Source: an uncultured Gemmatimonadales bacterium
Lineage (GTDB): Bacteria > Gemmatimonadota > Gemmatimonadetes > Longimicrobiales > RSA9
Length of the DNA: 64,000 nucleotides
Assembly (NCBI GenBank): GCA_963708135.1
Contig: OY970192.1
Location: 3,328,001 to 3,392,000 of the forward strand
Direction: 5' to 3'
Part shown: positions 5,185 through 59,190 of the stretch, piece after piece
Numbering within the stretch: position 1 is the stretch's first letter
How the letters are laid out: each line of letters opens with the position of its first letter
Translations under genes and position numbers: made by a program
The notes under the pieces: generated by a model
The model's database searches: none
Told to the model about the DNA's origin: nothing
The model's input: only the letters and a program-made list of their open reading frames with translations

Positions 5185-5363
5185 CGCGGTGAACTCCCCA
5201 CGCGCACCCCGGCGCGAAGACGGTTGGGGAGTTGACCGCGCTATTCGTTGTCAACTCCCCAGGCGCCGCAGGTCCATGGGAACGATTGGGGACTTTGCCG
5301 CGCTATTCGTTGTCAACTCCCCAACCGTCGATTCCACCACCAATGCGTGGGGACTTTCCTGCC
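5185..5363 (+). repeat. 179-bp triple-palindrome dispersed element, family A, copy 1
   Basis: GTGAACTCCCCA-N24-TGGGGAGTTGAC CGCGCTATTCGTT GTCAACTCCCCA-N25-TGGGGACTTTGC CGCGCTATTCGTT GTCAACTCCCCA-N24-TGGGGACTTTCCTGCC; colinear with 15633-15811 (-) and 51297-51475 (+). Confidence 0.92.
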
Positions 5364-5542
5364 TCACGGGCCCGATGCGTCGGCGCGCACGGCGGACCCC
5401 CCATGCTGGCGGGGATTTTCCTGCCCGCGCGGGCCCGATGCGCCGGCGCGCACCCCGCAAGTCCGCTCCGGCGTGGAAGTTGCTCCGCGATCCGTGCCCG
5501 GGGAGCGTGCGCTCCCCGAAAGGGACGCACACGGGAGGGACG

Positions 5543-6310
5543 ATGAGGCTACGGTACCGCAGCGCCGTCACGGCGCTTTTCGTTTTTCTGCCCGCGCTGG
5601 CCGGGAGCGCGGTCGCGCAGGGGCGCGGCCACAGGTTCGAGGAGTCGGAGCGCCCGGCGCCGCTGCGCCGGGTGTCGGTCGGCGTCATGGGGGGGATGTT
5701 CACCTTCGGCCGCTTCCTCGAGCAGCACGTCACCGGCGGGGACCGCGAGCTCAAGGCCGGCGCGTCGCCCGGATTCGCCGGCAGCCTCGACCTGAACGTG
5801 GGCAAGCAGACCGCGGTGCGCGCGTCGTTCCTCTATGCGCCCGCGACGCTCGAGTTCCGCGATGACACCGGCACCGGCTCGACGCGGCTCGACCGGAACA
5901 ACCTGGCCGATCTGCACGCGGCGGTGGTGAGCGGGGACGTGCTGCAGTTCGTGGTGGACCAGCGGCGCCCGATCGCGCCCTACGCGGTGGCCGGCTTCGC
6001 CGCCGGGTTCTGGTCGCTCAACAACGCCGCGGACGAGATCGCCGGCGGGGCGTCCGGCAGCCGCGAGACGCGCTTCGGCTCCGTCGTCGGTGTGGGGGTC
6101 CAGCTCCGGGCCACCCCCGGCCTCGCCCTCCGCCTGGAGGCGACGTCGGACCGGCTGGGCAACCCCTTCGACGGCAACGACTCCTTCCGCGTCACGTCCG
6201 GCGATACCTTCGACGAGCCGTCCAAGAGCGACGTCAACCGCATCTCGCTCGCGCTCGTCTTCTCGCCCGCGCTGCACCACGGCCGGAGCCGCGCCCGCCG
6301 GCCCTACTAG
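5543..6310 (+). CDS. Outer-membrane beta-barrel protein
   Basis: ATG at 5543 after GGGAGG; signal peptide ending AVAQ; alternating beta-strand pattern (PYAVAGFAAG, GVGVQL). Confidence 0.7.
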   Translation: MRLRYRSAVTALFVFLPALAGSAVAQGRGHRFEESERPAPLRRVSVGVMGGMFTFGRFLEQHVTGGDRELKAGASPGFAGSLDLNVGKQTAVRASFLYAPATLEFRDDTGTGSTRLDRNNLADLHAAVVSGDVLQFVVDQRRPIAPYAVAGFAAGFWSLNNAADEIAGGASGSRETRFGSVVGVGVQLRATPGLALRLEATSDRLGNPFDGNDSFRVTSGDTFDEPSKSDVNRISLALVFSPALHHGRSRARRPY

Positions 6311-6484
6311 CGGACCGCGTCCCTGGTGCGGTGAGCACCGGCGAATGCCATCGCTACTTCGGAGACGGTCGGCTGGCGTCGTGACACCGAAGCGCCGTTC
6401 CCACGGCGCGTCCGGATGACGAGGCTGGCGGCGCGAGGAAGCGGCCCGGCGCCCCGCAGGGCGCCGCGCGGTCGCCGCGTCGCC

Positions 6485-6691
6485 TCAGCGCAGCGCTATG
6501 CTGCCGTCGACGCGGATCTCCGGCGCGAGCCCGTCGAGCTCCAGCCGCGCGTGCACGCCCAGCGTCTCTCCGCCCTCGAGCGTGCCGGCCTCCAGCGCCT
6601 CGCGGACCGCCCGCTCGATCTCGCGCTGCGCCGTGATGCCGAACTTCTTCAGAAAGCGCCGCAGCTCCAGGTTGAAGACTTCCTCGTCCAT
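6485..6691 (-). CDS. Small conserved protein (DUF6494-like)
   Basis: MDEEVFNLELRRFLKKFGITAQREIERAV; GGGAGG RBS before the ATG at 6691. Confidence 0.75.
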   Translation of the reverse strand: MDEEVFNLELRRFLKKFGITAQREIERAVREALEAGTLEGGETLGVHARLELDGLAPEIRVDGSIALR

Positions 6692-6706
6692 GGGGACCTC
6701 CCTTTT

Positions 6707-6901: not shown

Positions 6902-6902
6902 G

Positions 6903-9114: not shown

Positions 9115-9155
9115 GCGCGGCCGCTGCACGGAACCGACAGGTGAAGGAGGCACGG

Positions 9156-14834: not shown

Positions 14835-14934
14835 CGGGATGCGTGTTTGGGGGGGGCGGGATGCGGGAATGGGAGGGTGCCACCCGGTTGAGCGCAACCC
14901 CGCCGCCAGCCTCGGGGACCCTCCCCCCGCACCC

Positions 14935-15095
14935 CGTGCCGCAGTCCGTCGTGCCGCAGTTCCGTCGTGCCGCAGTCCGTCGTGCCGCAGTTCCGTCGTG
15001 CCGCAGTCCGTCGTGCCGCAGTCTGTCGTGCCGCAGTCCGTCGTGCCGCAGTCCGTCGTGCCGCAGTCCGTCGTGCCGCAGTCCGTCGTGCCGCA
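14935..15095 (+). repeat. 15-bp tandem repeat (CGTGCCGCAGTCCGT), ~10 copies
   Basis: Near-perfect units, two with an extra T; intergenic. Confidence 0.95.
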
Positions 15096-15405
15096 CCGCC
15101 CCACCGCACCCTTGTACCGCCGCGTCTCCCCCTCCCTGGGGGGGGACTTCCGGGATGACGTGTGCCTGCGGCGCAACTCGGCTTGGGGACCGGCGTCCGG
15201 ATCGGCCTGGCGGCTGGCGTCATGGCGACGCCGGGTCCGCCCCCTGCGCCTGACGGCGCCGCCGTTGCCCCCTTCCACCGCCACCTCCGCTTTCGCGCCC
15301 CCGCCCCGTAGCATCCAGGGGTCCGGGGGAACTCAGGGGCGGCGCGAAAAGCACGGCGCGATTCGCGGGCGGGCTCGAGGACGGGCCGACCCGGGCCGGG
15401 GGGAG

Positions 15406-15584
15406 CGAGCAAGATCGGGGTGTGGACCTCTCCGTGAGGATCGGAACCCCTCTTCTTATCGGGATTCGAGAAGAAAGGCGCAGTGGCCGCCTCTCGGCGA
15501 CACCGCGACCGCCATCTTGCTCGATTTCCGGGATGATTCGGGATCTGGGCGGTTTGGCGCCCGTCCATTGGGCGATCTTGATCG
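15406..15584 (+). repeat. 179-bp triple-palindrome dispersed element, family B, copy 1
   Basis: Starts CGAGCAAGAT; TYYTRVTCG-type arms begin at 15453, 15515, 15576 (62/61 spacing); colinear with 56348-56526 and 59012-59190. Confidence 0.8.
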
Positions 15585-15632: not shown

Positions 15633-15811
15633 GGCAGGAAAGTCCCCACCCTTCCGTCGCGGAATGGACGCTTGGGGACTTGACTGCGAATAGCGCGGCA
15701 AAGTCCCCAATCGTTCCGATCGGCCTCCGACGCTTGGGGAGTTGACAACGAATAGCGCGGTCAACTCCCCAAACGCCTTCGCGGGGGGGTACGGCTGGGG
15801 AGTTCACGGCC
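15633..15811 (-). repeat. 179-bp triple-palindrome dispersed element, family A, copy 2
   Basis: Reverse complement of the 5185-5363 element; same length, arms conserved, inner segments diverged. Confidence 0.92.
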
Positions 15812-15843
15812 GCCGCACGCAGCCGCCGCCCGCGCGAACCGCA

Positions 15844-16350
15844 CCAGCCCCGGCTCCCACCCGCGCGCGGACGAGGGGCTGCCGGCCTGGATGACCGTGC
15901 CCGCGCCAGCCCCGGCTCCCACCCGCGCGCGGACGAGGGCTGCTCATCGCCGCGGCGGCCACCGTCCCCGCCCCGGCCCGCGCCCGCGCGCGGAAGAGTC
16001 TGCTGCGCCCGCGCGGCTTCGACGACGTCCACCCCGGTCCGCGGCCGCGCGGGGAAGAGGCGGCCGCAGTGTTGCGGGCAACCGAAACGACGCGCGCCCG
16101 CGCCCGCGCGGGGAAGAGCGGGTCCGCCCCCTGCGCCAGCAACGTCCGCACCCCGCGCCCGCGCCCGCGCGGGGAAGAGGTCAGCCGGATCGCCGCAGTG
16201 CGCGTCGGTGCGCCCGCGCCCGCGCCCGCGCGGGGAAGAGGGAGGAGGTCGTGAGCCGCGAGGACGCGCTAGACCCGCGCCCGCGCGGGGAAGAGGGAGG
16301 AGATGGTGAGCCGCGAGGACGCGCTGGACCCGCGCCCGCGCGGGGAAGAG
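15844..16350 (-). CRISPR. Degenerate orphan CRISPR-like array (type I-E-like geometry), 9 repeats
   Basis: The + strand motif CCCGCGCCCGCGCGGGGAAGAG (or variants) ends at 15875, 15937, 15998, 16059, 16118, 16179, 16240, 16295, 16350 (spacings 62,61,61,59,61,61,55,55); intervening sequences are mostly unique; the minus strand CTCTTCCCCGCGCG resembles the 5' part of I-E repeats. No cas genes in the window. Confidence 0.5.
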
Positions 16351-16592
16351 GGCGGGGGCGGCGGCGGGTCGGGCCCGGCGGGGAGTCGTGAGCCCGCGGC
16401 GCGCCGCGCGCCTCCGCCAACGGAAGCCGGCGCGGCCGGGCGGCAGCCCCCTCGAGCCCCGAGCCCCGAGCCCCCAGCCCCGAGCCCGAGCCCGAGCCCG
16501 AGCCCCGCCCCCGACCCGTCCGTTCAGTCCGGCCGGGCGCACCGATCGGCCCCGGCCGTCGCTGGCTCGGGCAGGCCGATGCGAGACGCACT

Positions 16593-34874: not shown

Positions 34875-36129
34875 GATTCCTCCGGGGTGGACGGCACAGC
34901 CCCTCGAACGCCTTGGCACGCTCCACAAGGGCCGGGGCGGGCCGAAGAGCGACGACGAGCCGTCTGGGATGCCTGTCATCCGCTACGGCGAGCTCTACAC
35001 GCATCACAACGAGGTGGTGCGGAGCGTCCGATCGTTCGTACCTGCCGAGAAGGCTGAGAACTACACGCCGCTCAGGCCCGGAGACGTCCTCTTCGCGGGA
35101 GCGGGGGAGACGGCGGAAGAGATCGGAAAGTCAGCCGTCTTCCTCGGCCCCGCGCCTGCTTACGCAAGCGGGGATTTGGTCATCTTCCGACCGAACGGAC
35201 AGCTCGATCCGCTCTTCCTCGGCTACGCCTCGAACGGTCCCGCGGCGACTGCCTACAAGCAGTCGGTGGGCCAGGGCAGCTCCATCCTTCACATCTACTC
35301 GCGGGATCTGCAGGCGCTCGAACTCCTCGTGCCGCCCCTCCCCGAACAGCGGAAGATCGCCGCCATCCTCTCCAGCGTCGATGACGCCATCGCGGCGACG
35401 GGGAAGGTCATCGAGCAGACGAAGCGGGTGAAGCAGGGGCTCCTTCAGGCGCTCATGACCCGCGGCATCGGGCACACCCGGTTCAAGAAGACGGAGATCG
35501 GCGAGATCCCGGAATCATGGGAACTGGTGCCGCTGGGCGATGTCTGTGCCCACATCACCAAGGGTGCCACGCCGACTACCTACGGCTACCAGTGGATCGA
35601 GAGTGGTGACGACGGGGTCCTCTTTCTCCGGAGCGAATGCGTCTCAGAGGAGGGTTTTCAGCTGAGGGGGTCGGAGCGCATACCCGAACCCGCCCATGCA
35701 TCGATGTCACGATCGGAGATCCGCGGCGACGACGTTCTGGTCACCATTACGGGCAACGTCGGCCGAGTCGGGCAGGTTCCGGAGGAGATCGAACGAGGGA
35801 ATATCAACCAGCATCTCGCACGTGTCCGCGTAGAGGCCCGCGAGCTTTTTCAGGATTTTGTGCATCTCGCTTTGCAGACGAAGCGACAGCGGAATCGGTT
35901 CGAGACGATCGTTACCGGGCTGGCATATCCGCAGTTGAGCCTGAAGCAGATCCGGGAGACGATCGTGCCGATGCCGCGGAGAGCCGAGCAAGAGGAGATA
36001 GTCGAGCGAATCGCGGCCATTAAGGACGTGATAGTTCGCAGTGAACGATCTCTTGCGGCATGGCAGAAAATGAAGCGCGGTCTCATGCAGGACCTCCTCA
36101 CCGGGCGCGTCCGCGTCCAGACGGACTGA
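34864..36129 (+). CDS. hsdS: Type I RM specificity subunit
   Basis: Two TRDs separated by PPLPEQRKIAAIL...KQGLLQALMT; ends KRGLMQDLLTG. Confidence 0.96.
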   Translation: MLAEIPPGWTAQPLERLGTLHKGRGGPKSDDEPSGMPVIRYGELYTHHNEVVRSVRSFVPAEKAENYTPLRPGDVLFAGAGETAEEIGKSAVFLGPAPAYASGDLVIFRPNGQLDPLFLGYASNGPAATAYKQSVGQGSSILHIYSRDLQALELLVPPLPEQRKIAAILSSVDDAIAATGKVIEQTKRVKQGLLQALMTRGIGHTRFKKTEIGEIPESWELVPLGDVCAHITKGATPTTYGYQWIESGDDGVLFLRSECVSEEGFQLRGSERIPEPAHASMSRSEIRGDDVLVTITGNVGRVGQVPEEIERGNINQHLARVRVEARELFQDFVHLALQTKRQRNRFETIVTGLAYPQLSLKQIRETIVPMPRRAEQEEIVERIAAIKDVIVRSERSLAAWQKMKRGLMQDLLTGRVRVQTD

Positions 36130-36133
36130 CGCG

Positions 36134-39100
36134 ATGCCCGGCCCCGAGTTCGGCCTCGTCGAGAAGCCCGCGATCGATGTGCTCACGGGCCTCGGCTACG
36201 ACTACCTTCCGGCCGCGCAGAACGAGCTCGCGCGCGACGGGCTGAACCAGGTGCTCCTCCGGGAACATATAATCGATGCGGTCCAGCAACTGAACGGCCT
36301 CGATGCCGACATGGCCGGCCGCGTCTACCACGACCTGCTCAACGTCTCCGACAACGAGCGCTGGATCGAGGTCCTGCGCGGCCAGTATTCGCGCGCCGTG
36401 CCTGGTGAGGCGACGCACCAGACCATCCGGCTGATCGACTTCCTCCATCCGACGAACAACCGCTTCACGGTCACGAACCAGCTCCACGTGAAGTCGGAGC
36501 ACCCCCGCTGCGCGGACCTCGTCGTCTACGTGAACGGGATCCCGCTGGTGGTGATCGAGGCGAAGAAGCCGGGCGCGGGCAAGCTCCACATGGCGTACGA
36601 GCAGATCCGGCAGTACGAGGAGCAGATCCCGCGGCTCTTCTACTCGAACGCGTTCAACATCGTCACGGACCGGCACGAGACGCGGTTCGGCACGACGGGC
36701 GCGCCTTGGGCGTACTGGGGGACATGGCGGGACCCATGGCCGCGGAGCGAGGCCGACTTCGCCGACGACTTCGAGAAGACGCTGTGGGCGCTCCTCGATC
36801 CGCATCGCCTGCTCGACATCCTCGCCCATTTCATCGTGTTCGAGCGGGAGGGCGACTCCGGCCGGATCGTGAAGAAGATGTGCCGCTACCAGCAGTTCCG
36901 GGCGGCGAATAGAATCGTGGAGCGGGCGCAGGACGCCGAGAAGCGGCGAGGGCTGATCTGGCACACGCAGGGGAGCGGGAAGTCGCTCACCATGGTGTTC
37001 TCGGTGCTGAAGCTGAAGCTCCACCGCACGCTCGACACCCCCGCGCTCGCCAGCCCCAACATCCTCGTCATCACGGACCGGAAGGACCTGGACCGGCAGA
37101 TCTCGGCCACGTTCCAGGCGTGCGGGCTCCCGAACCCGAAGCCGATGGGGTCGATGGCGGAGCTCCGGCGCACGATCCACAGCGGCGTCGCCGGGCTCAC
37201 GGTGCTCTCGACGATCCACAAGTTCGAGGGCTCGAAGGCGCCGGTCGAGAACAGCGGCAACTGGATCGCACTGGTGGACGAGGCCCACCGCACGCAGGAG
37301 AAGGATCTCGGCGCGTTCCTGCGCGCCACCTTCCCCGATGCGCGCCTGTTCGGCTTCACCGGCACGCCGGTGAAGAAGAAGGACCTGGACACCTTCCAGA
37401 ACTTCAGCCCGCCGGGCGAGGGGTACCTGGACCGGTACAGTATCGACGACGCCGTCGCCGACGGCGCCACCGTGCCGATCCGCTACACGTCACGAAAGGC
37501 GGAGTGGCACGTCGATCCGGCGAAGATCGACATTCTCTTCGACAGCTGGTTCGCCGACGAGTCCGAGGAGCGGCTGGAGGCGATCAAGAAGCGGGGCGTG
37601 ACCATTGCCGAGCTGGCGAAGCACCCGCGGCGCGTCGAGCTCATCGCGTTCGACATCTGGACCCACTTCAAGGGGCACGCTCTCCCCGACGGCTACAAGG
37701 CGCAGATCGTGGCCATCGACCGCGAGGCGATCATCCTCTACAAGCGGGCCCTGGACCGGGTGATCGCGGAGCACCTCCGGAAGGACGGGCTGACGGCGCA
37801 CGAGGCGCTGGGTCGTGCCGCGGCCATGTCGGTCCCCGTCTACTCCTCGGCGCAGTGGGACGCCATGCCCAGCGAGGACGCTTGGGTGAACGATGTCCGC
37901 GCGGACCTGCGCCGCTACGCGCTCGACGAGGACGGCGAGAAGCAGGCGATCGCCGCGTTCCAGAAGCCGGGCGCGCCGCCCCATTTCCTCATCGTCTGCA
38001 ACAAGCTCCTGACCGGCTTCGACGCGCCGGCCGAGAGCGTGATGTACCTGGACAGCCCGCTCACGGACCACAACCTCCTGCAGGCCATCGCCCGGACGAA
38101 TCGGGTGTCGGGGCCGAAGAAGAGGTTCGGGCTGATCGTGGACTACATCGGCATCACGCGGAAGCTCGACGAGGCGCTGGCCGCGTACCGCGAGGAGGAC
38201 GTCGAGAACGTGATGAAGGACCTGGAGGTCGAGCGGGACGCGCTGCGGAAGGCGCACCGCGAGGTCTTCGCCATGGTGCCGAAACGAACCGGCGACATGA
38301 GCGCCGATTACGACGCCCTCGTCGCCGCGCTCGGCACGGAGGACGTCTGGTACACGTTCCGGCGCAAGGCGGACGCGTTCGTCCAGGCCTACGAGAGCCT
38401 GAGCCCGGATCCGGCGATCCTCGAGTACCGACACGACCTGAAGTGGATCGTCGGCTTCATCCAGTATGCGACGCCGATCATCGAGAAGGACCCGCCGCCC
38501 GACCTGAGCGGCGTGAGCGGCAAGATCCGCCGCCTTCTCGAGGAGCACCTGGACGTAACCGGGATCAGGACCGTGGTGAAGCTCCGCCAGCTCACCGATC
38601 CGGACTTCTGGACGGACTTCGACAGCGACAGGCCGGCGCGGGAGCTCCGCCGCGCCACGATCCGGAAGGCGACGGAGCTCAAGCGGATCACGTACGACAA
38701 GGTCGAGGAGAACCCGCTCCGCTACCAGAAGTTCTCCGAGCGCGTGCTCGAGGTGATCCGGCGCTTCGAGGAGGGCCAGCTCGCGGCGGCCGAGGCGCTG
38801 AAGGAATTCCAGGACATCGCGAAGGACCTCGAGGACGAGGACCGGGCCCACGAGAGCTCGGGGTTGAACGAGCGCGCGTACGGTGTGCTCAAGATCCTCG
38901 AATCCCTGGAGGCCGCGGACGCGAGCGTGTCCGCGGGAGGACGCGTCGCCGAAGGCAGGGCGTCCTATCCGGAGGCTGCCCCGGTGCGCGGCCTCGCCGA
39001 GCTCGCGGCGGACATCGACGGTATCTACGCCAGCGACGAGAAGGCGCCGGCGGGCTGGCACCTGAAGGACCAGCTCCGCAAGGAACTGCGCCAGGAGGTC

Positions 39101-39196
39101 CGCCATCGCTCGCACCGGGCGGGGCTGAAGGAGGTGAAGGAAGTGGCCGCCCGCGTGGAGGAGTACGCGCTCCGGCACTACGTGAAGGTGGCGTGA
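36134..39196 (+). CDS. hsdR: Type I RM restriction subunit
   Basis: DLVVYVNGIPLVVIEAK nuclease motif, WHTQGSGKS, DEAHR, FTGTP, LLTGFDAP, QAIARTNR. Confidence 0.97.
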   Translation: MPGPEFGLVEKPAIDVLTGLGYDYLPAAQNELARDGLNQVLLREHIIDAVQQLNGLDADMAGRVYHDLLNVSDNERWIEVLRGQYSRAVPGEATHQTIRLIDFLHPTNNRFTVTNQLHVKSEHPRCADLVVYVNGIPLVVIEAKKPGAGKLHMAYEQIRQYEEQIPRLFYSNAFNIVTDRHETRFGTTGAPWAYWGTWRDPWPRSEADFADDFEKTLWALLDPHRLLDILAHFIVFEREGDSGRIVKKMCRYQQFRAANRIVERAQDAEKRRGLIWHTQGSGKSLTMVFSVLKLKLHRTLDTPALASPNILVITDRKDLDRQISATFQACGLPNPKPMGSMAELRRTIHSGVAGLTVLSTIHKFEGSKAPVENSGNWIALVDEAHRTQEKDLGAFLRATFPDARLFGFTGTPVKKKDLDTFQNFSPPGEGYLDRYSIDDAVADGATVPIRYTSRKAEWHVDPAKIDILFDSWFADESEERLEAIKKRGVTIAELAKHPRRVELIAFDIWTHFKGHALPDGYKAQIVAIDREAIILYKRALDRVIAEHLRKDGLTAHEALGRAAAMSVPVYSSAQWDAMPSEDAWVNDVRADLRRYALDEDGEKQAIAAFQKPGAPPHFLIVCNKLLTGFDAPAESVMYLDSPLTDHNLLQAIARTNRVSGPKKRFGLIVDYIGITRKLDEALAAYREEDVENVMKDLEVERDALRKAHREVFAMVPKRTGDMSADYDALVAALGTEDVWYTFRRKADAFVQAYESLSPDPAILEYRHDLKWIVGFIQYATPIIEKDPPPDLSGVSGKIRRLLEEHLDVTGIRTVVKLRQLTDPDFWTDFDSDRPARELRRATIRKATELKRITYDKVEENPLRYQKFSERVLEVIRRFEEGQLAAAEALKEFQDIAKDLEDEDRAHESSGLNERAYGVLKILESLEAADASVSAGGRVAEGRASYPEAAPVRGLAELAADIDGIYASDEKAPAGWHLKDQLRKELRQEVRHRSHRAGLKEVKEVAARVEEYALRHYVKVA

Positions 39197-39921
39197 TGGG
39201 CGAGATCGTGATCGGCTCGCGCGTCATCCGCTACCAGGTCCGGCGCAGCGCCCGGGCCGGCCGGAAGCGCATCGAGGTGACCCCGGGAGGCGTGCAGGTC
39301 ATCGTCCCGGATGACGCCTCCGCGGAGGAGGTCGAGCGATTCGTCCAGCGGAAGCGCCGCTGGCTCCACGACAGGACGCAGGAGATCCGGGAAGAGGTGG
39401 AACGGCTCCGGGGAGACACCCCCGAGGGGTTCCACTCGGGCGCGAAGATCCTGTTCCGGGGGCGGTACCTGAAGCTGAGGATCCGAACCTCGGATTCGGA
39501 CCGGCCGTCGCTCAGCTACCGCACCGCCTTCCAGCTCGAGCTGCCCCGGGACCTGCCTCGGGACCAGCGGGAGCAGGTCGTGCGACGCCTCGTCGAGCGC
39601 TGGCTCGAGGAGCGGCTCACGGAGGACGCCTGGGAGGTCGTGCGCCGGCGCGGCGCGGCCCACGGCCTGGAGCCCCGCGGCCTCCGGATCAAGGACCAGT
39701 GGACCCTCTGGGGAAGCTGCGGCCGCGACAACGTGATCCGACTCGACCGGAAGCTCGCCCGGGTCCCGAAGCCGGTGTTCGAGTACGTCGTGGTCCACGA
39801 GCTCTGCCACCTCGAGCATCGGGATCACTCGCCCGCCTTCTGGGGTCTGGTGAAGCGAGTCCTGCCGGACTACGAGGAGCGGAAGGAATGGCTGGAGCAG
39901 CACGAGGTCAGACTGCGGTGA
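39196..39921 (+). CDS. YgjP/SprT-like (DUF45) zinc metalloprotein
   Basis: TGATG overlap with hsdR; WGSC, YVVVHELCHLEHRDHSPAFW. Confidence 0.92.
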   Translation: MGEIVIGSRVIRYQVRRSARAGRKRIEVTPGGVQVIVPDDASAEEVERFVQRKRRWLHDRTQEIREEVERLRGDTPEGFHSGAKILFRGRYLKLRIRTSDSDRPSLSYRTAFQLELPRDLPRDQREQVVRRLVERWLEERLTEDAWEVVRRRGAAHGLEPRGLRIKDQWTLWGSCGRDNVIRLDRKLARVPKPVFEYVVVHELCHLEHRDHSPAFWGLVKRVLPDYEERKEWLEQHEVRLR

Positions 39922-45114: not shown

Positions 45115-47914
45115 TCAGCCCTTCGGCGCGGGATCGAACTCCACGACGAGGTGGGAGGGGAACGGTCCGTCCATCTGCAGCGTGCCGTCCGTTCCGGCGG
45201 CCCTCCGCAGGTTGGGCCGGCCGAGGACGGCCTGCGCGATGCGCGGGATCTGCACCATGTTGATATACTGCCCGAAACAGGTGTGCATGCCGTAGCCGAA
45301 GTGCATGTATTCGTGGGCCGGGCGGTCCACCCGGAACTCCTCCGGCGACGGGATGCGGTCGCCGTCGAAGGTGGCCGACTGCAGCACGGCCAGCACCCTG
45401 GTCCCCGCCTTCAGGGTCGTGGCGCGATGCGTGCCCCGGGCGATGGTGTAGTCCGCCAGGACCATGCGCGGGACGCCGGGGCCGAGCGGGTTGAACCGCA
45501 TCGCCTCCGAAACGTAGCTCGCGACGGTGCCGCTGTCGCCCCTGGCCGCGGCGGCGTGCGCCAGCGCGAGCTCGCGGGGCCGGCGCAGCAGCTCGTCGAT
45601 GGCGCGCGCCGCCATGGCCGCGGTGGTCGGAATCGCACCGACGACCAGCCCGAAGAGGTTCACCGCGAGCGTCTCGTCGTCCATCCCCGGCACGCCGGCA
45701 TCCTGGAGCACGAGGCAGCGCTCGAGGACATCGTCGCGCGGGCCGCGCGCCGACTTCCGCGCGGCGATCGAGGCGCGCAGGGCGGTGAGCATCCGGCCGG
45801 CCGCCTGCTGCGCCCCGGCGCGCAGGTTGGCGGCGGAGAGGAAGAGGTAGCCGGAGATCAGCCCGGCCTCCGTGGCGAAGGCGCCGGGCGTGGGGCTGGG
45901 CGTGCCGAAGTAGTCCGCCACGAACTCGCCGGCGACGCGCAGCGCCAGCTCCTGCACCACGTCGATGCGCCCGGGGGCCGCCGCCACGATCGCGTCCGCC
46001 GTCGTGGCGACGAACGGAGCGATGCGAGCCGGGATGTCGTCCCGCCGCACCACGATGCGCATGTTGGAGACGTCGCGCTGGTACTCCGGCGTGTTGCTCA
46101 TCCCCAGGAAGAAGTTCCGCCCACCGGTGAGCTCGGCGAAGTTGTCGGCGTACGGCACCTGGAAGACCGCGTCGCGGGAGAGGACCTCCTGCACGTCCTC
46201 GAACCGGGTGACCAGGGTGAGGTCCTTGATCGTCAGGATCGGCTTCAGCCGGCGCAGCACCGCGAAGATCCGCTCGGGGTGCGCCACCGCCCACGCTTTC
46301 AGGCCGTCCTCGATGTGGTGCAGCTCCGTGCCGAGGGCGCCGAGCTCCTCATCGACGAGGTGGGCGATCTCGTGCGGGAGCGCGGCCGCGTGCCGGCCGA
46401 TCTTCGCCTCGATCGCCTCGATGCGCGAGATGATCGCCTCATGCACGGGGGCACCTCCGGGTGATGGCATTGGCAGGGTGTCGTCGCCGACGCCCGTCTC
46501 GTCGAAGCGGATCAGCCGCGCCTCGAGCACGTCCCGGGCGCGCACCATCCAGCGGAGCGCCGTGATGCTCGGCATGAAGAAGTAGGCGCCGCCGCGCATC
46601 TCGACGAGCTGGGGCAGGCCGAAGCAGACGTGTGGCCGGTGGCCCCCGGGCGCGCTGGCGTCGCCCGGGATCACCATCTTGTCCGAGGCCGCCCGGCTGC
46701 CCATGAGGGGGTCGGTGTCGTTTCCCTGGCTGAACTCGTTTCCGTAGTTGAGCCACTGCTGCAGCACGAACTCGAACTGCTCCTGCAGCGAGGCGCACAG
46801 CGCGACGAAGATCACCCCGTGCTCGCCGGTGTCATCGCCCGGCTCGTCGGCCGGGATCCACCGGCCGTACGGCAGCCCGCGGCGGATGATGCGGCGGCCG
46901 GCGGTCAGCGAGGTGCCGAAGCCGAGGGCATCGCGGGGGTTGGCGCGGCGGATGTGGGAGCCGAGCGGGCAGCGCAGTCCGTCGGGGTCGGCGGCGTAGC
47001 GGAAGTCGATCACGCGGTCGGCGTCCGCCACGATCGATGGATCGGGGTGATCGGGTGACAGGGCGAGGGGCGTCCCGTCGCGCCAGCGCCCGACCATCTT
47101 CGCCGCGAGTCGCTCCGGGCCGCCCGGAACGCGCGCTCCCTCCTCGGCGAGGAACCGCCGGAAGCTGCCCACGTTCTGGTGCAGCTTGGTGTACGCGACG
47201 AAGGTCCCGTTCCTGAACAGGTTGATCGGCGGCGGGGTGTGCGCGATCTCGCCCGCTTCGTTGCGGTGGCCGAGAAGGAACTCGCCCGCCGCGACCGGCT
47301 CCCAACCGCGGTCCGTCGGCTTGCCGCCGCCGGGCCTGGGCGGCAGTCCGGTCGAGGCGATGTGCGGATTCCCGAAGCCGTCCGAGTAGCCGAAGTGCTC
47401 CTTGTTGCTCGGCTTCCCGCCGATGACCAGGGCGCCCGCATCCTGGCTCCCGACCAGTGTGGCGCCACCCGACGTCCGGCGCAGGTCCTCGAGCCAGGCG
47501 ACGCGGGCCGCGAGCGCATCCGGATCCCTCGCGCCGATCATGACGAAGCAGTGCACGGCTTCGTCGCGCCAGAGCGGTTCCCACCTGCTCGGGTCGCTCG
47601 GCCCGACCTCGCCCAGCGTGCGCGCGCGCGCGCGAAATCCCTGCCGGAAGTCGGCGGGGAACGCATTCGAGGGCGTCCGGCGGCAGGCCGAGCGCCTGCA
47701 GCCCGGGGTAGCTGAAGGCGACGTTCACCGTGGAGGCCGGCTTCCCGCCGTCCCATTCCACCGACGTCGTGACCTCGTGGGTGATCGCCTCGACGAGGCT
47801 GCGCGCCTTCGCGGCGTCATCGAACCGCAGGAAGACGTAGCGCGCCACCCTCGAGCGGTAGCCGCGGATGATGTTCCCCTGGATGTCGGCCAGGTCGAGC
47901 CGAAGTTCGCTCAT
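45115..47914 (-). CDS. DyP-type peroxidase - cytochrome P450 fusion, interrupted by one extra base near 47668
   Basis: DIQGNII start (ATG 47914), EHFGYSDG, HIRRANPR, IIRRGLPYG, then in the same frame EAMR and FGYGMHTCFG. The span is 2800 bp (3n+1); removing one base at 47668/9 gives LGLPPDALNAFPADFRQG. Confidence 0.85.
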
Positions 47915-49362: not shown

Positions 49363-49737
49363 GTGTGCGTGCGCGTGTGCGTGTGCGGTGGTTCGTGCCG
49401 TGTCTTCACGCCCGGCACGCTTGCGCGACCGGCTTGCGCTCGCGCGCGGCCGCACGCGGGTCGCGCAGGCGCAAAAGGGGGTGCCGAAAAGGGTCGGGGG
49501 CGCGGGGACGGGGACGGGGACGGGGACGGGGACGGGGACGGGCACGGGCACGGGCACGGGCACGGGCACGGGCACGGGGCACGGGGCACGGGCACGGGGG
49601 ACGGGCGCGGGCACACGCTACGCCCGGCACGCTTACGGGCACACGCGTTCGCACACGGGCACACGCACGGGCACTGTCACACCCACACGCATACGCACAC
49701 GGGTTCGCACCTGCACACGCACACGCACACGCACACG
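49363..49737. repeat. Compound hexamer microsatellites: (GTGTGC)n ... (GGGGAC)n(GGGCAC)n ... (ACACGC)n
   Basis: Read directly at ~49363-49387, 49503-49613 and 49640-49737, in a divergent intergenic region. Confidence 0.85.
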
Positions 49738-49771
49738 GGTCCTATCCCCCGCAGCGAAGAAGAGGTGCTCC

Positions 49772-51099: not shown

Positions 51100-51260
51100 G
51101 GCGGGCGCCGCGGTGCCCGGGAGCGCCCGGGTCCTGGCGGGCGCCCTGGTCCTCGGCGGGCGCGCTGGTGCCCGGCGGGCGCGGCGGTCCTCGGCGGGCG
51201 CCCTGGTCCTCGGCGGGCGCGCTGGTGCCCGGCGGGCGCGCCGGTCCTCGGCGGGCGCCC
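51100..51260 (+). repeat. ~19-bp degenerate tandem repeat (GGCGGGCGCSCTGGTSCYC), ~8 units
   Basis: Read directly between the DUF559 start and the family A element. Confidence 0.8.
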
Positions 51261-51296
51261 GCGTCGCCGGCCGACGCCCCGGTTGCGTGCGGCGGG

Positions 51297-51475
51297 CGCG
51301 GTGAACTCCCCACGCGTACCCCGGCTCGGAGACGGTTGGGGAGTTGACCGCGCTATTCGTTGTCAACTCCCCACGGACCTCAGGTCCATGGGAACCATTG
51401 GGGACTTTGCCGCGCTATTCGTTGTCAACTCCCCAAACGTCGATTTCACGACCGATCCGTGGGGACTTTCCTGCC
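51297..51475 (+). repeat. 179-bp triple-palindrome dispersed element, family A, copy 3
   Basis: Colinear with 5185-5363; lies ~255 bp upstream of the DUF559 gene. Confidence 0.92.
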
Positions 51476-51519: not shown

Positions 51520-51768
51520 CCCGCCCCGCGCCGCGCCCCCCACCTCCCCCGCACGGTCGCCTCGCCACCGCGGCACCGCCATGGCGGGATCGGCCGCCAG
51601 ACACCCGCCCCGCGCCGCGCCCCCCACCTCCCCCGCACGGTCGCCTCGCCACCGCGGCACCGCCATGGCGGGATCGGCCGCCAGACGCCCGCCCCGCGCC
51701 GCGCCCCCCACCTCCCCCGCGCACGGTCGCCTCGCCGCCGGGGCGCCGCCATGCCTGGATCGGCCGAC
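51520..51768 (+). repeat. 84-bp tandem repeat, 3 units
   Basis: Units start at 51520, 51604 and 51688 (CCCGCCCCGCGCCGCGCCCCCCACCTCCCCCGC...). Confidence 0.9.
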
Positions 51769-51993: not shown

Positions 51994-53514
51994 ATGGCGC
52001 ATGCGAGCACCGAGCGCTTCACACGGAGCCGATCCGTGCAACGTCCCATCGCACCGTCCGCGCGGGCGCTGCACCCGGTCGGCGCACGCCGGATCCTCGC
52101 CGTCGGCGCACGCCGGCTGCCCGCGCTCGGCGCACGCCGGCTGGTTCCGCTCGGCGCACGGCGGCTCCTCGTCCGCGCACGCCGGCTGGTTCCGCTCGGC
52201 TCACGCCGGCTGCTCGCGCTCGGCGCAGCGCGGCTGGTTCCGGTCGCCGCACGGCGACTCCTCGCCCTGGGCGCGCGCCGGCTCCTCGCCCTCGACACAC
52301 GCCGGCTGCTCCTACTCGGCGCGCGGCGGCTGCTCCCGCTCGGCGCGCTCGGAATCCTCGCCGCCTGCTCGCTGCCGGCCAGTCGCGGCGGCGCGGTTCC
52401 GGCGGAATCCGCGGCCCGGCGGGCGCTGGCGGATGCGGACACGCTGCGCGTGCGCGATGTGGCACCGGGCGTCCGCTACGTCTACGCGTGGCGGTCCACC
52501 GGGCCGTGGGGCATCAACGTGCTGGAGGTGGACGGACGCGTCTGCGCGGCCGACTGGGAGGCCAGGAAGATGCCGGGGGTGGACTCGCGTGCCACCACCT
52601 CCTCCCTCGGCGCCGGCGATCTGGCCGCCGTCAACGGGGATTTCTTCGCGATCCCGGCGGGCACACCGGTGAACGCCTTCGTGCACGAGGGGCTGCCGTG
52701 GATCGGCCCGTCGTCGTGGCCGGCGTGGATCCTGACGGGAAGGCGCGCGACGATCGGGACGCCGGGCTTTCGCGGCGGAATCGTCGCCGGAGGCGACACG
52801 CTCCGCCTCAGCTCGCTCAACCGGGCACCTGTACGGACCACCGCCTACCACCCGGCTCCCGATGGGGCGACGCTGTTCACCACGCGCGTCGGGAAGGCGA
52901 CGCTCGGCGATTCCGCCGCCACGCTGCTGTGGCTGGACGACGCGGCCGGCGACGAGCGCGCCGGCGGCGGGCGGAGCGCCGCGACCGAGGCACTGCCGGC
53001 GGCCGAAGACACCGCGGCGCGGCGCGCGGACGTGCCCGCCGGCCGCGCCCTGCTCGTGCTGCGCGGCGGCTCCCGCGCGTGGGCGAAGCGGCATCGCCCG
53101 GGCGAGCGCGTACGCTGGTGGACCGCCGTGCTCTCTCCCGCCGGCGACGTCGCCCGGGAGGTGGTGGGCGGGTTCCCGGTGCTGCTCCGGAACGGCCAGC
53201 CCGTCGAGCACGGCGGCGAGGTGCGTCCATCCTTCGGCGAAACGAGGCATCCCCGCTCCGCCATCGGCTGGAGCGCGGACGGAACGCGGACGTTCCTCGT
53301 CGTCGTCGATGGCCGGCAGGAGTCCTACAGCGGCATGTCGCTTCCCGAGCTCGCCGCGCTGATGCGCGAGCTGGGCGCGGCCGAGGCACTGAACCTCGAC
53401 GGCGGCGGCTCCTCGGCCATGGTGGTGCGGGGCTCGGTCGTGAGCCACCCGTCCGACAGGGACGGCGAGCGGCCGGTGGGCGACGCCCTGGCGCTCGCCG
53501 GGTGCGCGCGCTGA
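51994..53514 (+). CDS. Phosphodiester glycosidase (NAGPA-domain) lipoprotein with a repetitive N-terminus
   Basis: AVNGDFF, RHPRSAIG, VVVDGRQ, ALNLDGGGSS; lipobox-like LAAC after xGARRLxx repeats; start uncertain. Confidence 0.85.
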   Translation: MAHASTERFTRSRSVQRPIAPSARALHPVGARRILAVGARRLPALGARRLVPLGARRLLVRARRLVPLGSRRLLALGAARLVPVAARRLLALGARRLLALDTRRLLLLGARRLLPLGALGILAACSLPASRGGAVPAESAARRALADADTLRVRDVAPGVRYVYAWRSTGPWGINVLEVDGRVCAADWEARKMPGVDSRATTSSLGAGDLAAVNGDFFAIPAGTPVNAFVHEGLPWIGPSSWPAWILTGRRATIGTPGFRGGIVAGGDTLRLSSLNRAPVRTTAYHPAPDGATLFTTRVGKATLGDSAATLLWLDDAAGDERAGGGRSAATEALPAAEDTAARRADVPAGRALLVLRGGSRAWAKRHRPGERVRWWTAVLSPAGDVAREVVGGFPVLLRNGQPVEHGGEVRPSFGETRHPRSAIGWSADGTRTFLVVVDGRQESYSGMSLPELAALMRELGAAEALNLDGGGSSAMVVRGSVVSHPSDRDGERPVGDALALAGCAR

Positions 53515-54419: not shown

Positions 54420-54493
54420 TGCGCCCGACAGGATTCGAACCTGTGACCTCGTGCTCCGGAGGCACGCGCTCTATCCAACTGAGCTACGGGCGC
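54420..54493 (-). tRNA. trnR: tRNA-Arg (CCG)
   Basis: GCGCCCGTAGCTCAGTTGGATAGAGC...CGTGC-CTCCGGA-GCACG...GGTTCGAATCC...CGGGCGCA; CCA not encoded. Confidence 0.97.
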
Positions 54494-54505
54494 GAACAAA
54501 GGGGC

Positions 54506-54911
54506 GGACGGGAAGCGCGATAAGCCGAGTCCTGTCGCCGGCGCCGTCGCCTGAAGGCGAGCCGCCGGGGCGGATCATTTCTCTGGGACGGCGGTTGCCC
54601 GCCGCCTCGAGCGGCCTACCCGGGACTTCCAGCAGCCTTTCGGCTGCGACGGCGCGGGCCGCGCCTCATCCCTGCTTGGCCTTGCTCCGGGTGGGGTTTG
54701 CCGTGCCGCCTCCGTCGCCGGAGACGCGGTGGGCTCTTACCCCACCGTTTCACCCTTGCCTGTGCCCCCGAGGGGGCCATCGGCGGTCTGTTCTCTGTGG
54801 CACTTTCCGTCGTGTCGCCACGCCCGGCCGTTAGCCGGCACCCTGCCCTGCGGAGCTCGGACTTTCCTCGACCGCCGCATCGGCGGCCGCGATCCGCTGC
54901 GCTTCCCGTCC
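54506..54911 (-). ncRNA. rnpB: RNase P RNA (type A)
   Basis: GAGGAAAGTCCGAGC, GGAAAGTGCCACAGA, GGGTGAAACGG, GGCAAACCCC, ACAGGACTCGGCTTAT; P1 pairing of GGACGGGAAGCGC with GCGCTTCCCGTCC. Confidence 0.97.
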
Positions 54912-54924
54912 TGTCAAACAGCAG

Positions 54925-54998
54925 CGCGCCCGAGAGGACTCGAACCTCTAACCTTCTGATCCGTAGTCAGATGCTCTATCCAATTGAGCTACGGGCGC
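54925..54998 (-). tRNA. trnR: tRNA-Arg (ACG)
   Basis: GCGCCCGTAGCTCAATTGGATAGAGCATCTGA-CTACGGA-TCAGA...GGTTCGAGTCC...CGGGCGCG; CCA not encoded. Confidence 0.97.
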
Positions 54999-56347: not shown

Positions 56348-56526
56348 CGAGCGAAAACGGGGAATGGAGCCCGCCGCCGGCGCCGGAATCGCGATTCTGC
56401 TCGGTATCCGAGAGGAAACGCGCAGCGGCCGCGCCGGCGACGTCGCCGGATCCCACTTCTGCTCGGTATCCGAGACGAATCGGCGGACGGACGGCCCGCG
56501 CGACCTCGGCTGCGCGATTCTGCTCG
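56348..56526 (+). repeat. 179-bp triple-palindrome dispersed element, family B, copy 2
   Basis: CGAG arms at 56348, 56409, 56471; TTCTGCTCG arms at 56395, 56457, 56518; GTATC linkers. Confidence 0.85.
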
Positions 56527-56615
56527 CCTTCCGCCGAACACCCAGCCCGCCCTCACCGCACCCCCCAATCCCGCGCCGCGCATCCCGAGCGCCTCGCGCC
56601 TACCGCCCGGAGCGT

Positions 56616-57797
56616 CTAGAACGCCGAAAACCCGGTCAGGTCCTGCCCCAGCACGAGGGTGTGGATGTCGTGCGTGCCCTCGTAGGTGTAGACGGACTCG
56701 AGGTTGGCCATGTGGCGCATGGCGGAGTACTCGACGAGGATGCCGTTGGCGCCGAGCAGGCGGCGGGCCTCGCGGGCGACGTCGCAGGCCATGTCGCAGT
56801 TGGCGCGCTTGGCGAGGGAGACCTGCTGGGGGCGCATGGTGCCGCGGTCCTTGAGGCGCCCGAGCTGGAGGCAGAGGAGCTGGGCCTGCGTGATGCCGGT
56901 GAGCATCTCGGCCAGGCGCGCCTGCTGGAGCTGCTTGGCGCCGATCGGCGTGCCGAACATGACGCGCTCCTTCGCGTAGCGGACCGCCTCGTCGAGGCAG
57001 CCCATGGCGGCGCCGACGACGCCGAAGGCGATGCCGTAGCGCGCCTGCGTCAGGCACATGAGCGGGCTCTTGAGGCCGCCGGAGGAGGGCAGCAGCGCGT
57101 CGGGGCCGACGCGCACGTCCTGGAGCGCGAGCTCGCTCGTGTCGGAGGCCAGGAGCGAGAGCTTGCCCTTCTGGTCGCGGGCCTCGAAGCCGGGGGTGTC
57201 GGTCGGCACGATGAAGCCGCGGATGGAGGCCTGGTCGTCCAGCTCCCCGGTCTTGGCCCAGACGATGGCGATGTCGGCCATGGAGCCGTTGGTGATCCAC
57301 ATCTTGGCGCCGTTCAGCACCCAGCCCTCGCCGTCCTTCCGGGCGGTGGTGATCATCCCGGCCGGGTTGGAGCCGAAGTCCGGCTCCGTCAGCCCGAAGC
57401 AGCCGATCACCCTGCCCGCGGCCATGTCGGGCAGGTAGGCGCGCTTCTGCTCCTCGCTGCCAAAGGCGTGGATCGGGTACATGCACAGCGCGCCCTGCAC
57501 GGAGGCGAAGGAGCGGAGCCCGGAGTCGCCGCGCTCGAGCTCCTGCATGATGAGCCCGTAGGCGACGTTGTTCAGCCCCGCGCACCCGTACTCCTCGGGC
57601 AGGTTCGCGCCGAGCAGCCCCAGCTCGCCCATCTGCGGGATGAGCTCGGTGGGGAAGTGCCGGCCGATGTAGGCCTCCTCGATGACCGGCAGCACCTGCT
57701 CGTCCACCCAGGTCCGCACCGTGTCGCGCACCATGCGCTCCTCCTCGGAGAGGAGCGAGTCGAGATCGAAGTAGTCGATTCCGCTGAAGGCAGCCAT
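56616..57797 (-). CDS. gcdH: Acyl-CoA dehydrogenase (glutaryl-CoA dehydrogenase-like)
   Basis: ELERGDSGLRSF.SVQ, CFGLTEPDFGSNP, KMWITN, YTYEGTHDIH. Confidence 0.88.
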   Translation of the reverse strand: MAAFSGIDYFDLDSLLSEEERMVRDTVRTWVDEQVLPVIEEAYIGRHFPTELIPQMGELGLLGANLPEEYGCAGLNNVAYGLIMQELERGDSGLRSFASVQGALCMYPIHAFGSEEQKRAYLPDMAAGRVIGCFGLTEPDFGSNPAGMITTARKDGEGWVLNGAKMWITNGSMADIAIVWAKTGELDDQASIRGFIVPTDTPGFEARDQKGKLSLLASDTSELALQDVRVGPDALLPSSGGLKSPLMCLTQARYGIAFGVVGAAMGCLDEAVRYAKERVMFGTPIGAKQLQQARLAEMLTGITQAQLLCLQLGRLKDRGTMRPQQVSLAKRANCDMACDVAREARRLLGANGILVEYSAMRHMANLESVYTYEGTHDIHTLVLGQDLTGFSAF

Positions 57798-58016
57798 GTG
57801 AGCACCGCTGATCCGGTTGAGGTCGTTTCGAGGCCCCAAGTTAGCACCGCGCTCCGGGCCCCGCGAGGGGCGCTCCCCCTCCCGACGCACGGCCCCCGCC
57901 CGTGGTCCGGCGCGCCGGGATCGGACCGGGCTGTGGCGGGCCGCGCCCAATTGTCCGGGCACGGCGCCCCGGCTATCTTGCTGCCATCCACCCACCCTCA
58001 AAGCGTTGGAGTGACG

Positions 58017-58913
58017 ATGCCGAGGAACGCTCTCCCCCCCCGGATCCTGGTGCTGGCCGCGCTGCTGCTCTCGGCGGCGGCGTGCGAGTCGGCGAAGACG
58101 AAGCAGCAGATCGCGGATCTGCAGGCCGCCGCGTCCCAGACGGACAGCCTCATGTCGGAGGTGGCGACGAACGCGCGCATGATGAGCGAGATCGGCGCGG
58201 AGGTCGCGCGAGTGCAGGGGGCCCCGCTCGCGGGGCAGAGTGGCGAGCGGATCGCGACCCCGGCCAATCCAGACACGATCCTGGCGGGGATCCGTGTGCT
58301 GAGCGCGCGGCTGGACAGCACGCAGGCGGCGCTCACGCGCAGCGAGGCGCGGGCGAAGAAGCTGAGCGGACAGGAGGGCTCGCTGCGCCACTCGCTCGCC
58401 GATCTGCGCGCGGCCGTGACGAACCAGAAGGCGACGATCGCGGCGCTGACGGAGCAGATCGCGAGCCTGCAGCAGGAGAACACCCGCCTTTCGGGCGAGA
58501 ACACGAAGCTGGCGAGCACGAACCAGCAGCTCGGCGACACGGTCCAGGCGCTGTCGAAGCGGGCTGCAACCGTCTACTACGTGGTCGGCACGAAGGAGGA
58601 CCTGCTCCAGCACGGCATCGTGAAGGAGACCGGCGGCAGCCGCGTGCTCTTCATCTTCGGCAAGCGCGGCAAGGTGCTCGTCCCCGCAAGCGACATGGAC
58701 CCGAACTACTTCACGCCGGTCGACATGCGGACCACCATGGACATCCAGCTGCCGGACTCGACCCGCGCCTACAAGATCGTCACTCCGCAGGACCAGTCGG
58801 CGCTCTCGAACACGCCCGACGACAAGGGACGGTTCCACGGCGACGCCCTGCACATCACCGATGCGCAGCGCTTCTGGGCGAAGGGCCGCTACCTGATCCT
58901 GGTCGAGTCCTGA
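58017..58913 (+). CDS. Coiled-coil lipoprotein (Cbp1-like C-terminal domain possible)
   Basis: Lipobox-like AAAC, long heptad region, VYYVVGTKEDL...G..K..GG C-terminal domain. Confidence 0.75.
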   Translation: MPRNALPPRILVLAALLLSAAACESAKTKQQIADLQAAASQTDSLMSEVATNARMMSEIGAEVARVQGAPLAGQSGERIATPANPDTILAGIRVLSARLDSTQAALTRSEARAKKLSGQEGSLRHSLADLRAAVTNQKATIAALTEQIASLQQENTRLSGENTKLASTNQQLGDTVQALSKRAATVYYVVGTKEDLLQHGIVKETGGSRVLFIFGKRGKVLVPASDMDPNYFTPVDMRTTMDIQLPDSTRAYKIVTPQDQSALSNTPDDKGRFHGDALHITDAQRFWAKGRYLILVES

Positions 58914-59011
58914 CGCCACGGACGAGAGCCCGGCCGGCGCCGCACCGTCGTTCGGATTCGCGGCACACCGCCGGGTGAGCTCCGGCGTCCAGCTGCGGCC
59001 TGACGGTCGCG

Positions 59012-59190
59012 CGAGCAAAATCGCGCACTCGACGCATCCCGATCCGGCGGGATCCCGATCTGTCTCGGAAAGCGAGCAGGATCGGGGTCCCGTCGGGGCT
59101 CCGCCGCGCCCACTACGCCGTTCGTCTCGGATTCCGATCAAATTCGGGATCCCGTTGCCCGCGGCGGCCTCCATTCCTCGATCCTGCTCG
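59012..59190 (-). repeat. 179-bp triple-palindrome dispersed element, family B, copy 3
   Basis: Reverse complement is colinear with 56348-56526; arm copies at 59012, 59073, 59135 (61/62 spacing). Confidence 0.8.

Follow-up and report, generated by a model that had tools for sequence, protein, structure and literature searches.

What holds dispersed, non-coding elements to one length while their sequences diverge, and what reads them? The question is raised by a stretch of 64,000 nucleotides from an uncultured Gemmatimonadales bacterium (contig OY970192.1, positions 3,328,001 to 3,392,000), referred to here as the window, in which six 179-bp elements of two sequence families, A and B, share a single geometry. 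We find that these elements, and those of further families elsewhere in the genome, are paired with genes encoding a fusion of an AbiEi-like DNA-binding protein with a Vsr/EDxHD-type nuclease. The pairing is well supported, and the elements are very probably bound as duplex DNA, in the manner of an operator, each by its own AbiEi-nuclease. No description of such a pairing was found in the freely readable literature searched.

Arrays of six sites at fixed spacing

All six elements (Table 1) were recovered at the positions, on the strands and with the length given in a preliminary description made from the sequence alone. Each is composed of 56+5+57+5+56 bp with CG-N5-CG junctions, the left-arm starts being spaced by 61 then 62 bp and the right-arm ends by 62 then 61 bp, as first described, and our own dicodon gene caller confirmed that all six are intergenic. 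The junction centre of family A is CTATT, and family B has five forms (GGATT, ATTTC, GTATC, GAATC and CTTTC), three of which had been listed. The strong divergence claimed for the inner segments holds in B (mean pairwise identity 0.62) but is only moderate in A (0.85).

That the arrangement exceeds chance was borne out genome-wide. Iterated profile searches of the genome of the window (G000; a single contig of 5.45 Mb, 72% GC and 97.65% complete) detected 98 full copies in five families, 25 in A, 23 in B, 18 in C, 25 in D and 7 in F, families C, D and F having the same build as the two seen in the window, and 97 of the 98 copies are intergenic according to the same gene caller. The first seed for family F matched a PadR-like gene family and was dropped. 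Family E consists of tandem arrays at four or five places, and a sixth family of ~180 bp and the same build is represented by ~6 solo copies (G000:C1:213953, 216804, 473934, 478979, 1121039 and 4281318), of which that at 216804 was counted in D.

Each element can be read as six sites in alternating orientation, with conservation reaching ~22 bp into each arm, a site period of 61.5 bp, a junction of 5 bp and, in all five families, an A/T pair at site positions 8-9. A family-profile scan located five dyads at 43.5, 74, 105, 136 and 166.5 in families A, B and F, with spacings of 30.5/31/31/30.5 bp; family C has the same dyad frame with weaker outer dyads, and family D has units of 55/56/55. Because dyads centred on the junctions are as good as those centred on the units, the three inverted-repeat units of the preliminary description stand as a description but not as a unique one, three hairpin units being one of two equally good ways to describe the array.

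Spacing is conserved to a much greater degree than sequence. Equal length is retained by 22/25 A, 20/23 B, 11/18 C and 23/25 D copies, even though identity among copies is 62% in B and 59% in D. Substitutions per indel event number 122 in A, 211 in B (with four F copies), 69 in C and 634 in D, compared with 7.3% mismatches and 4.9% indels in intergenic tandem repeats of the same genome, a generous control since these repeats are prone to slippage. Copies free of indels may be favoured by profile detection, although partial matches are few (5, 5, 1 and 4). Private changes amount to 7.9% in site cores and 15.3% in spacers, and old copies are therefore still under selection or turned over. The earlier proposal that spacing is selected as in a protein-measured substrate, at about six helical turns per unit, is thus upheld by a 69- to 634-fold excess of substitutions over indels and by the presence of a candidate protein beside each family.

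Exchange and amplification of units are also observed. At G000:C1:5092451-5093149 a C element is followed by five to six amplified A units fused in register to the first half of a B element, a mosaic that suggests exchange between families, and approximately eight A-like 61/62-bp units with variant junctions (GCATAT/GCATAG) lie in tandem at G000:C1:867372-867867.

Partner AbiEi-nuclease genes

The gene partnered with family A lies 256 bp from element A3 and encodes a protein whose AbiEi-like part covers approximately residues 8-199 and whose nuclease part covers approximately residues 204-301. It matches AbiEi_4, DUF559 and MTES_1575 in Pfam and the AbiEi model of PADLOC (E 6e-25); NCBIfam has no family for it. 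In a structure predicted from 109 homologs (pLDDT 94), residues 1-192 match the entire AbiEi (Z 13.2, 183 of 195 residues aligned, root mean square deviation 3.6) and Rv2827c (Z 9.1), while residues 197-294 match I-Bth0305I (Z 14.1) and Vsr (Z 12.3). Residues E207, D234, E245, D247, H252 and D261 are invariant in all 109 homologs, and D234, D247, H252 and D261 align with D196, N208, H213 and D222 of I-Bth0305I, catalytic positions named for that enzyme (PMC3239194), the numbering offset being deduced from two alanine mutations in the solved chain. The catalytic domain thus resembles the EDxHD homing endonuclease and Vsr in fold and residues. Unlike the homing endonucleases described there, the nuclease genes are free-standing and intergenic rather than carried in an intron or intein (no Rfam intron family is present in the window), and an AbiEi part replaces the NUMOD DNA-binding region. 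In addition, a homing endonuclease is described as cutting the element-free allele, whereas the nuclease here adjoins many copies of its own putative site.

Seven paralogs with 46-50% identity are encoded in the genome, six of which have their own distinct multi-copy repeat family within ~400 bp: A, B, C, D, E and F each adjoin one paralog, and B, C, D and E do so on both sides. The seventh contains an in-frame TGA, which could alternatively be a sequencing error; its flanks are single-copy and no dispersed family was found for it. Flanking copies might instead point to a mobile array-gene-array cassette that inserts and excises through recombination between direct repeats, with solo arrays as its scars or landing sites. 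The B, C and D genes are indeed flanked by copies in the same orientation; the B pair lies within a direct repeat of ~350 bp and shares 96% identity, and the two C copies are mutual nearest neighbours. However, identity within the D pair is 76%, the A and F genes have a copy on just one side, no paralog exists in more than one copy, and scars should decay freely whereas the arrays do not. We consider a cassette origin improbable.

The gene family is large (13,111 clusters at 50% identity, E up to 1e-30) and chromosomal, with 0 phage records and five weak plasmid matches. The closest homologs in named records belong to Gemmatimonadota, many labelled Longimicrobiales, and then to Thermoleophilia, and 23 of the 36 further genomes of the family carry the nuclease, frequently as several copies. 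When the period was left free, a six-site detector was positive at 23/81 nuclease loci of relatives, with differing site sequences, compared with 1/56 comM/recA flanks and 8/539 other intergenic gaps, and total span was 120-123 bp in 23/27 scoring flanks when 90-160 bp was allowed. The same detector found nothing at 56 actinobacterial loci. With a four-site detector, a two-unit form with a period of 60-61 was revealed immediately upstream of the gene at 15 of the 40 Thermoleophilia loci scanned, the first 40 of the actinobacterial set (16 matches in all), and in none of 40 in-gene regions. A GTCAAC/GTTGAC core with a TAT-containing junction, close to the family A site, recurs in arrays of two phyla (L093, L118, L144, L081 and L088).

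Enzyme and repeat also covary among relatives. In a nuclease tree of 96 rows, built by a quick method and including 8 of the 56 actinobacterial loci, the six loci that have B/F-type elements group together in a single clade (SH-aLRT 98), against 0 of the other 90 rows, a pattern of co-evolution to which genome G035 is an exception and which is weaker for A. Genomes G012, G027 and G032 carry the B/F nuclease clade and also dispersed B-type copies. Matches to the B model, both strands counted, number 15 in G012, 26 in G032, 25 in G035, 3 in G027 and 4 in G030, with single weak matches in three more genomes and none in 52/60. One G035 paralog (L218:850-1950) has an insertion of ~50 residues of GRGPT-like repeat units in a loop of the AbiEi part, a tandem amplification within the gene itself.

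Why a protein of this type should read such arrays is suggested by published operators. AbiEi is reported to bind 23-bp inverted repeats as a monomer and to bend DNA, and the Rv2827c promoter to hold four such sites with 13/4/13-bp gaps and one protein on each, AbiEi and Rv2827c not binding each other's sites, which is cognate-specific binding within the AbiEi family (PMC7319586). The S. agalactiae and M. tuberculosis proteins described there share the two-domain fold along its full length with the present proteins, and their operators share tandem inverted sites of ~22-23 bp. By arithmetic from the published gaps, the period of the four-site Rv2827c operator is 63 bp, compared with 61.5 bp in the elements and 60-62 bp for the arrays as a whole. 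Given these periods and ~22-bp sites, the elements therefore resemble AbiEi operators with six sites. A dyad spacing of 30.75 bp corresponds to three turns at 10.25 bp, so that all six proteins would sit on one face of the helix; 10.25 bp per turn is near the twist of protein-wrapped DNA, and element DNA may accordingly be wrapped. Differences are also evident. Unlike the AbiE type IV toxin-antitoxin system, an extra nuclease domain is present here and no AbiEii toxin was found in the genome (PF08843, the one family searched, 0 matches), and the elements have six sites in ~100 dispersed copies whereas the operators described occur as one copy at a promoter.

An operator-like array could be purely regulatory or architectural, the AbiEi part repressing or bending DNA at ~100 sites while the nuclease domain does something else. 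AbiEi is a repressor, the two-unit arrays of Thermoleophilia lie directly on the upstream region of the gene, and A3 is located between the upstream motif and its gene. Against this, copies are enriched between convergent genes (30/92 vs 143/956 gaps), flank unrelated genes and show no polarity with respect to transcription (18 same, 24 opposite), and neither their dispersal nor their tandem duplications would be explained. A regulatory role as the whole explanation has a very slight chance of being correct.

Table 1. Elements, partner genes, repeats and upstream motifs; positions are those of the window unless prefixed by G000:C1
Feature	Position	Strand	Context or basis
Element A1, family A six-site array	5185..5363	+	between MCP chemoreceptor gene and outer-membrane beta-barrel-like gene
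15-bp tandem repeat, ~300 bp from B1	14915..15111		example of element-adjacent tandem amplification
Element B1, family B	15406..15584	+	convergent intergenic gap, also holding A2
Element A2, family A	15633..15811	-	same convergent gap as B1
Patchwork of 55- to 62-bp direct repeats	15834..16383		beside A2
AbiEi-like DNA-binding protein with Vsr/EDxHD-type nuclease domain, 304 aa	50127..51041	-	Pfam, PADLOC, structure; partner of family A
19-bp tandem repeat	51117..51283		between nuclease start and A3
Element A3, gene-adjacent family A copy	51297..51475	+	between upstream motif copies and nuclease start codon
Upstream motif GCCATGG-N4-GCCCC, three copies in 84-bp tandem repeat, facing nuclease gene	51563..51762	-	motif scan, tandem repeat search
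Motif 30-mers upstream of A-partner nuclease gene	51563-51592, 51647-51676, 51733-51762	-	
Element B2, family B	56348..56526	+	adjoins acyl-CoA dehydrogenase gene
Element B3, family B	59012..59190	-	upstream of BNR/sortilin-repeat protein gene
Partner of family B, outside window	G000:C1:3162550-3163494	-	B elements on both sides

Palindromy and the single-strand readings

Palindromic arms could in principle also be recognised as a folded single strand, and pairing between arms was compared with the expectation from column composition. In sets from which near-identical and offset copies were left out (n = 22, 18, 10, 19 and 6), summed over all families, pairing in the three units was 63.6 vs 62.1%, 64.3 vs 64.9% and 57.6 vs 57.9%, and at the two junctions 58.7 vs 58.6% and 64.7 vs 65.2%. 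The excess observed was -6.7 cells with a null standard deviation of 5.9, when simulated compensation of 25% produced +31; compensation of 10%, which in simulation produced +8.5 cells, cannot be dismissed firmly. An excess was lacking in every hairpin test, whether of unit, junction, long-range or crossed pairings, and cyclic pairing, of a left arm with the right arm of the next unit, found no support. One outlier, unit 1 of family D (+18.5 cells), may reflect subfamilies. In 22 B copies the unit structure was matched by 295/500 shuffles and the junction structure, for covariation, by 29/500; the covariation term of RNAalifold was -0.06. In family C, AAA is swapped for TTT in the arms, which breaks pairing and keeps the A/T tract.

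Structured RNA, which the preliminary description had offered as the alternative to a protein-measured substrate, is unsupported since the arms do not covary. Single copies do fold well (z -4.8 for A3 and -2.7 for B1), as is expected of any palindromic array, and these favourable energies are what a structured RNA, terminator or small-RNA precursor has in its favour. No element matched Rfam at the gathering score, only two chance matches being returned at E up to 1, and transcription polarity is absent. This explanation is largely refuted and has next to no likelihood.

A mechanism resembling that of REP-associated tyrosine transposases (RAYTs) or Ssn, in which the arms form DNA hairpins that are recognised and processed by the nuclease, would draw on the same folding of A3 and B1, on a gene-plus-repeat layout and convergent-gap enrichment resembling those of repetitive extragenic palindromic (REP) sequences, and on the 18 to 7 lean of family A in replichore orientation (origin and terminus estimated by GC skew). 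On the other side, compensatory change is absent, the AAA/TTT swap spares the A/T tract at the expense of pairing, the two predicted single-copy folds differ from one another, and no consistent strand bias was found in the other four families. Processing of single-stranded hairpins is very improbable.

The kinship with REP sequences that was first suggested, as a superfamily like REP or bacterial interspersed mosaic elements (BIMEs), is apt as an analogy but not as an assignment. As in RAYT/REP/REPIN/BIME systems, according to the reports consulted (PMC2817692; bioRxiv 10.1101/2021.07.10.451892), a single-copy chromosomal enzyme gene is flanked by its cognate repeat, several paralogs each have a family of their own, enzyme and repeat co-evolve, copies are intergenic, hybrid arrays occur and the genes are rare on plasmids and phages. 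In contrast to those systems, the enzyme is a Vsr-fold nuclease rather than an IS200-type tyrosine transposase, flanking pairs in B, C and D are direct rather than inverted, palindromy is not maintained by compensatory change, and spacer lengths are fixed whereas inter-REP segments vary. Y1 transposase (PF01797), the RAYT-type enzyme, had 0 matches in the 97.65% complete genome, the control search being positive in 6/14 genomes, and inspection of the consensus ends of A, B, C, D and F revealed no GTAG or CGTC end tag. The Ssn/NTS (SRM) systems of Neisseria and others (PMC11893778) are similar in that a nuclease gene is flanked by its own dispersed repeats and linked to natural transformation. 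Ssn is described as a single-domain GIY-YIG protein acting on single-stranded hairpins of 20-50 nt, whereas here a DNA-binding fusion accompanies 179-bp phased arrays that lack hairpin covariation. The system is best read as RAYT/Ssn-like in logic and as a member of neither.

Traces of activity, competence and a possible drive

Tandem repeats are concentrated beside the elements. They are present in 46/71 element gaps compared with 180/864 others, at a density of 3.35 vs 0.77 per kb (4.3 times) that holds within length classes too, and many end within 100 bp of an element. Tandem duplication involves whole elements in families C and D and terminal parts in B and D. A hexamer-like repeat tract lies downstream of the nuclease gene of the window (49484-49740), and a NAGPA-family gene begins with a tandem repeat of 24 bp (52034-52384). 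Target-site duplication was not detected, the longest end repeat averaging 3.9-4.9 bp vs 4.1-4.5 bp for mismatched pairs, and element ends are fuzzy, with identity fading over 10-15 bp. Miniature inverted-repeat transposable elements, too, are short, non-coding, dispersed and provided with inverted ends; the arrays differ in lacking target-site duplications, defined ends and a linked transposase, and in their internal six-site structure. Copies are sparse on the terminus side, at 1.0-2.5 Mb (7/204 gaps vs 85/752), and distance and identity among copies are uncorrelated or correlated with the wrong sign. The one informative DNA sequencing run, of low depth and apparently from the same organism, contained no joint at an element among the joints listed, in data that exclude the stretch with A3, B2 and B3. 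Other features of the window are an RNase P RNA gene with a tRNA gene on either side, all on the minus strand (54420-54998), a type I restriction-modification locus (33390-39921, HsdR 36134-39196) followed by a YgjP-like metallopeptidase, and a one-frame open reading frame matching both Dyp-type peroxidase and cytochrome P450, possibly a fusion (45115-47541).

A shared upstream motif may connect the nuclease genes with transformation. Trained only on upstream regions of relatives' nuclease genes (53/80), the motif GCCATGG-N4-GCCCC scores >16 within 900 bp of 7/7 paralogs compared with 41/4270 genes, and >13 before comM in 21/26 genomes, before recA in 3/30 and on the reverse strand in 0; it often lies 45-66 bp before the start codon (L223-L250). 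In this genome it also precedes pilB, yraN, a miaB-comEC run and a RecQ-like helicase, as well as two Uma2 nucleases, four IS91-like transposases and two IVP genes. The four IS91-like (Y2 transposase) copies lie within 35 kb (G000:C1:1814933-1849526), and the 3' end of comM recurs several times in a relative (L237, G012:C1:1833451-1835895), downstream of comM and 22 kb away, a pattern of comM-integrating elements. ComM and YraN are reported to process and mature transformation D-loops (PMC13663708). We regard the motif as a candidate for the family's competence promoter or for a regulator site, and the AbiEi-nuclease/array system probably has a role at competence.

Combined, these observations can be accommodated by the following mechanism. 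Each element would present six double-stranded sites of ~22 bp to its own AbiEi-nuclease fusion, an array that may have been derived from the gene's own operator, with one monomer per site, as for AbiEi, all six on one helical face and the DNA bent. Expressed at natural competence, the nuclease would nick or cut DNA beside its arrays, and the arrays would be kept intact and occasionally spread. Cutting near an array could bias transformation, making an intact array hard to replace by an allele without it and allowing it to be gained from donors, a transformation-linked drive. Aberrant repair of the cuts might yield the tandem duplications found nearby and, rarely, new copies that lack a target-site duplication. 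We put the chances at even that this chain, a competence-timed AbiEi-nuclease with operator-derived repeats acting as a selfish, transformation-linked drive, is right in outline, inferred steps included. It is doubtful, though worth stating, that every particular holds together as a class of selfish DNA in which a repressor operator became a mobile unit, six monomers loop a phased 179-bp array, expression is timed to competence and the array wins in transformation.

The main rival to a selfish drive is host benefit. During transformation, domesticated pairs would mark the chromosome for nicks that help to resolve D-loops or, like SsnA, would restrict the uptake of DNA, whether self or foreign, and host selection would keep the copies. 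Copies are constrained in place, the gene family is chromosomal, like RAYTs, which are described as vertically inherited (bioRxiv 10.1101/2021.07.10.451892), and the motif is common to the nucleases, comM and yraN. Yet presence is patchy (23/36, as above), up to seven paralogs each have a private family and some are broken, and occurrence of the motif before IS91-like transposases, Uma2 nucleases and IVP genes looks like selfish elements using a host regulon. Host benefit is unlikely, if still a serious contender.

Several results weigh against a mobile, cognate and competence-timed system as outlined above. The six-site detector is insensitive, missing 58/81 loci of relatives and 4/7 of our own genome's, and no nuclease gene was found beside any copy of the sixth family, which may be served by the E paralog or a broken paralog. 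In G035 the nuclease beside a B-type element falls outside the B clade, contradicting the expectation that it would fall within it, its AbiEi part being only sister (support 83), and in G030, which is 87% complete, B-type copies are present and a B-clade nuclease was not found. Junction-centred pairing in B, measured as percent paired, was reached by 9/500 shuffles, which is within the stated false-positive range of the tool. Neither an empty-site allele nor a movement event was seen among the genomes searched, which included no other of the genus. Every dispersed copy differs from all others, nearest neighbours in A sharing 88-93% identity, and spread is therefore slow or old; copies are weakly enriched near their own gene up to a distance of 50 kb (p 0.03) and not significantly so at 100 or 250 kb. 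Slippage on bound or structured DNA, with no cut involved, could also produce the tandem repeats. Finally, the motif is absent before dprA and HHH_3 genes and present before unrelated ones (glycogen debranching enzyme, sigma-54 activator), and the link to competence is therefore inferred.

The pairing of arrays with AbiEi-nucleases offers a testable function for a large uncharacterised protein family and names a candidate DNA substrate for six paralogs in one genome, the six pairs providing built-in cognate and non-cognate controls. After RAYTs and Ssn, the AbiEi-nucleases would make a third class of enzyme with bacterial dispersed repeats as partners, and the first that apparently recognises phased duplex sites with their origin in a toxin-antitoxin operator. 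The pairing is relevant to the persistence of REP-like repeats, both its means and its causes, and links such repeats to competence. It also supplies a poorly studied phylum with a candidate competence motif, and natural orthogonal protein-array pairs could serve as DNA-targeting parts. If the proposed mechanism is true, it would constitute a bacterial gene drive read from duplex geometry and programmable by protein-site pairs, spanning >13,000 protein clusters and several phyla in two- and three-unit forms.

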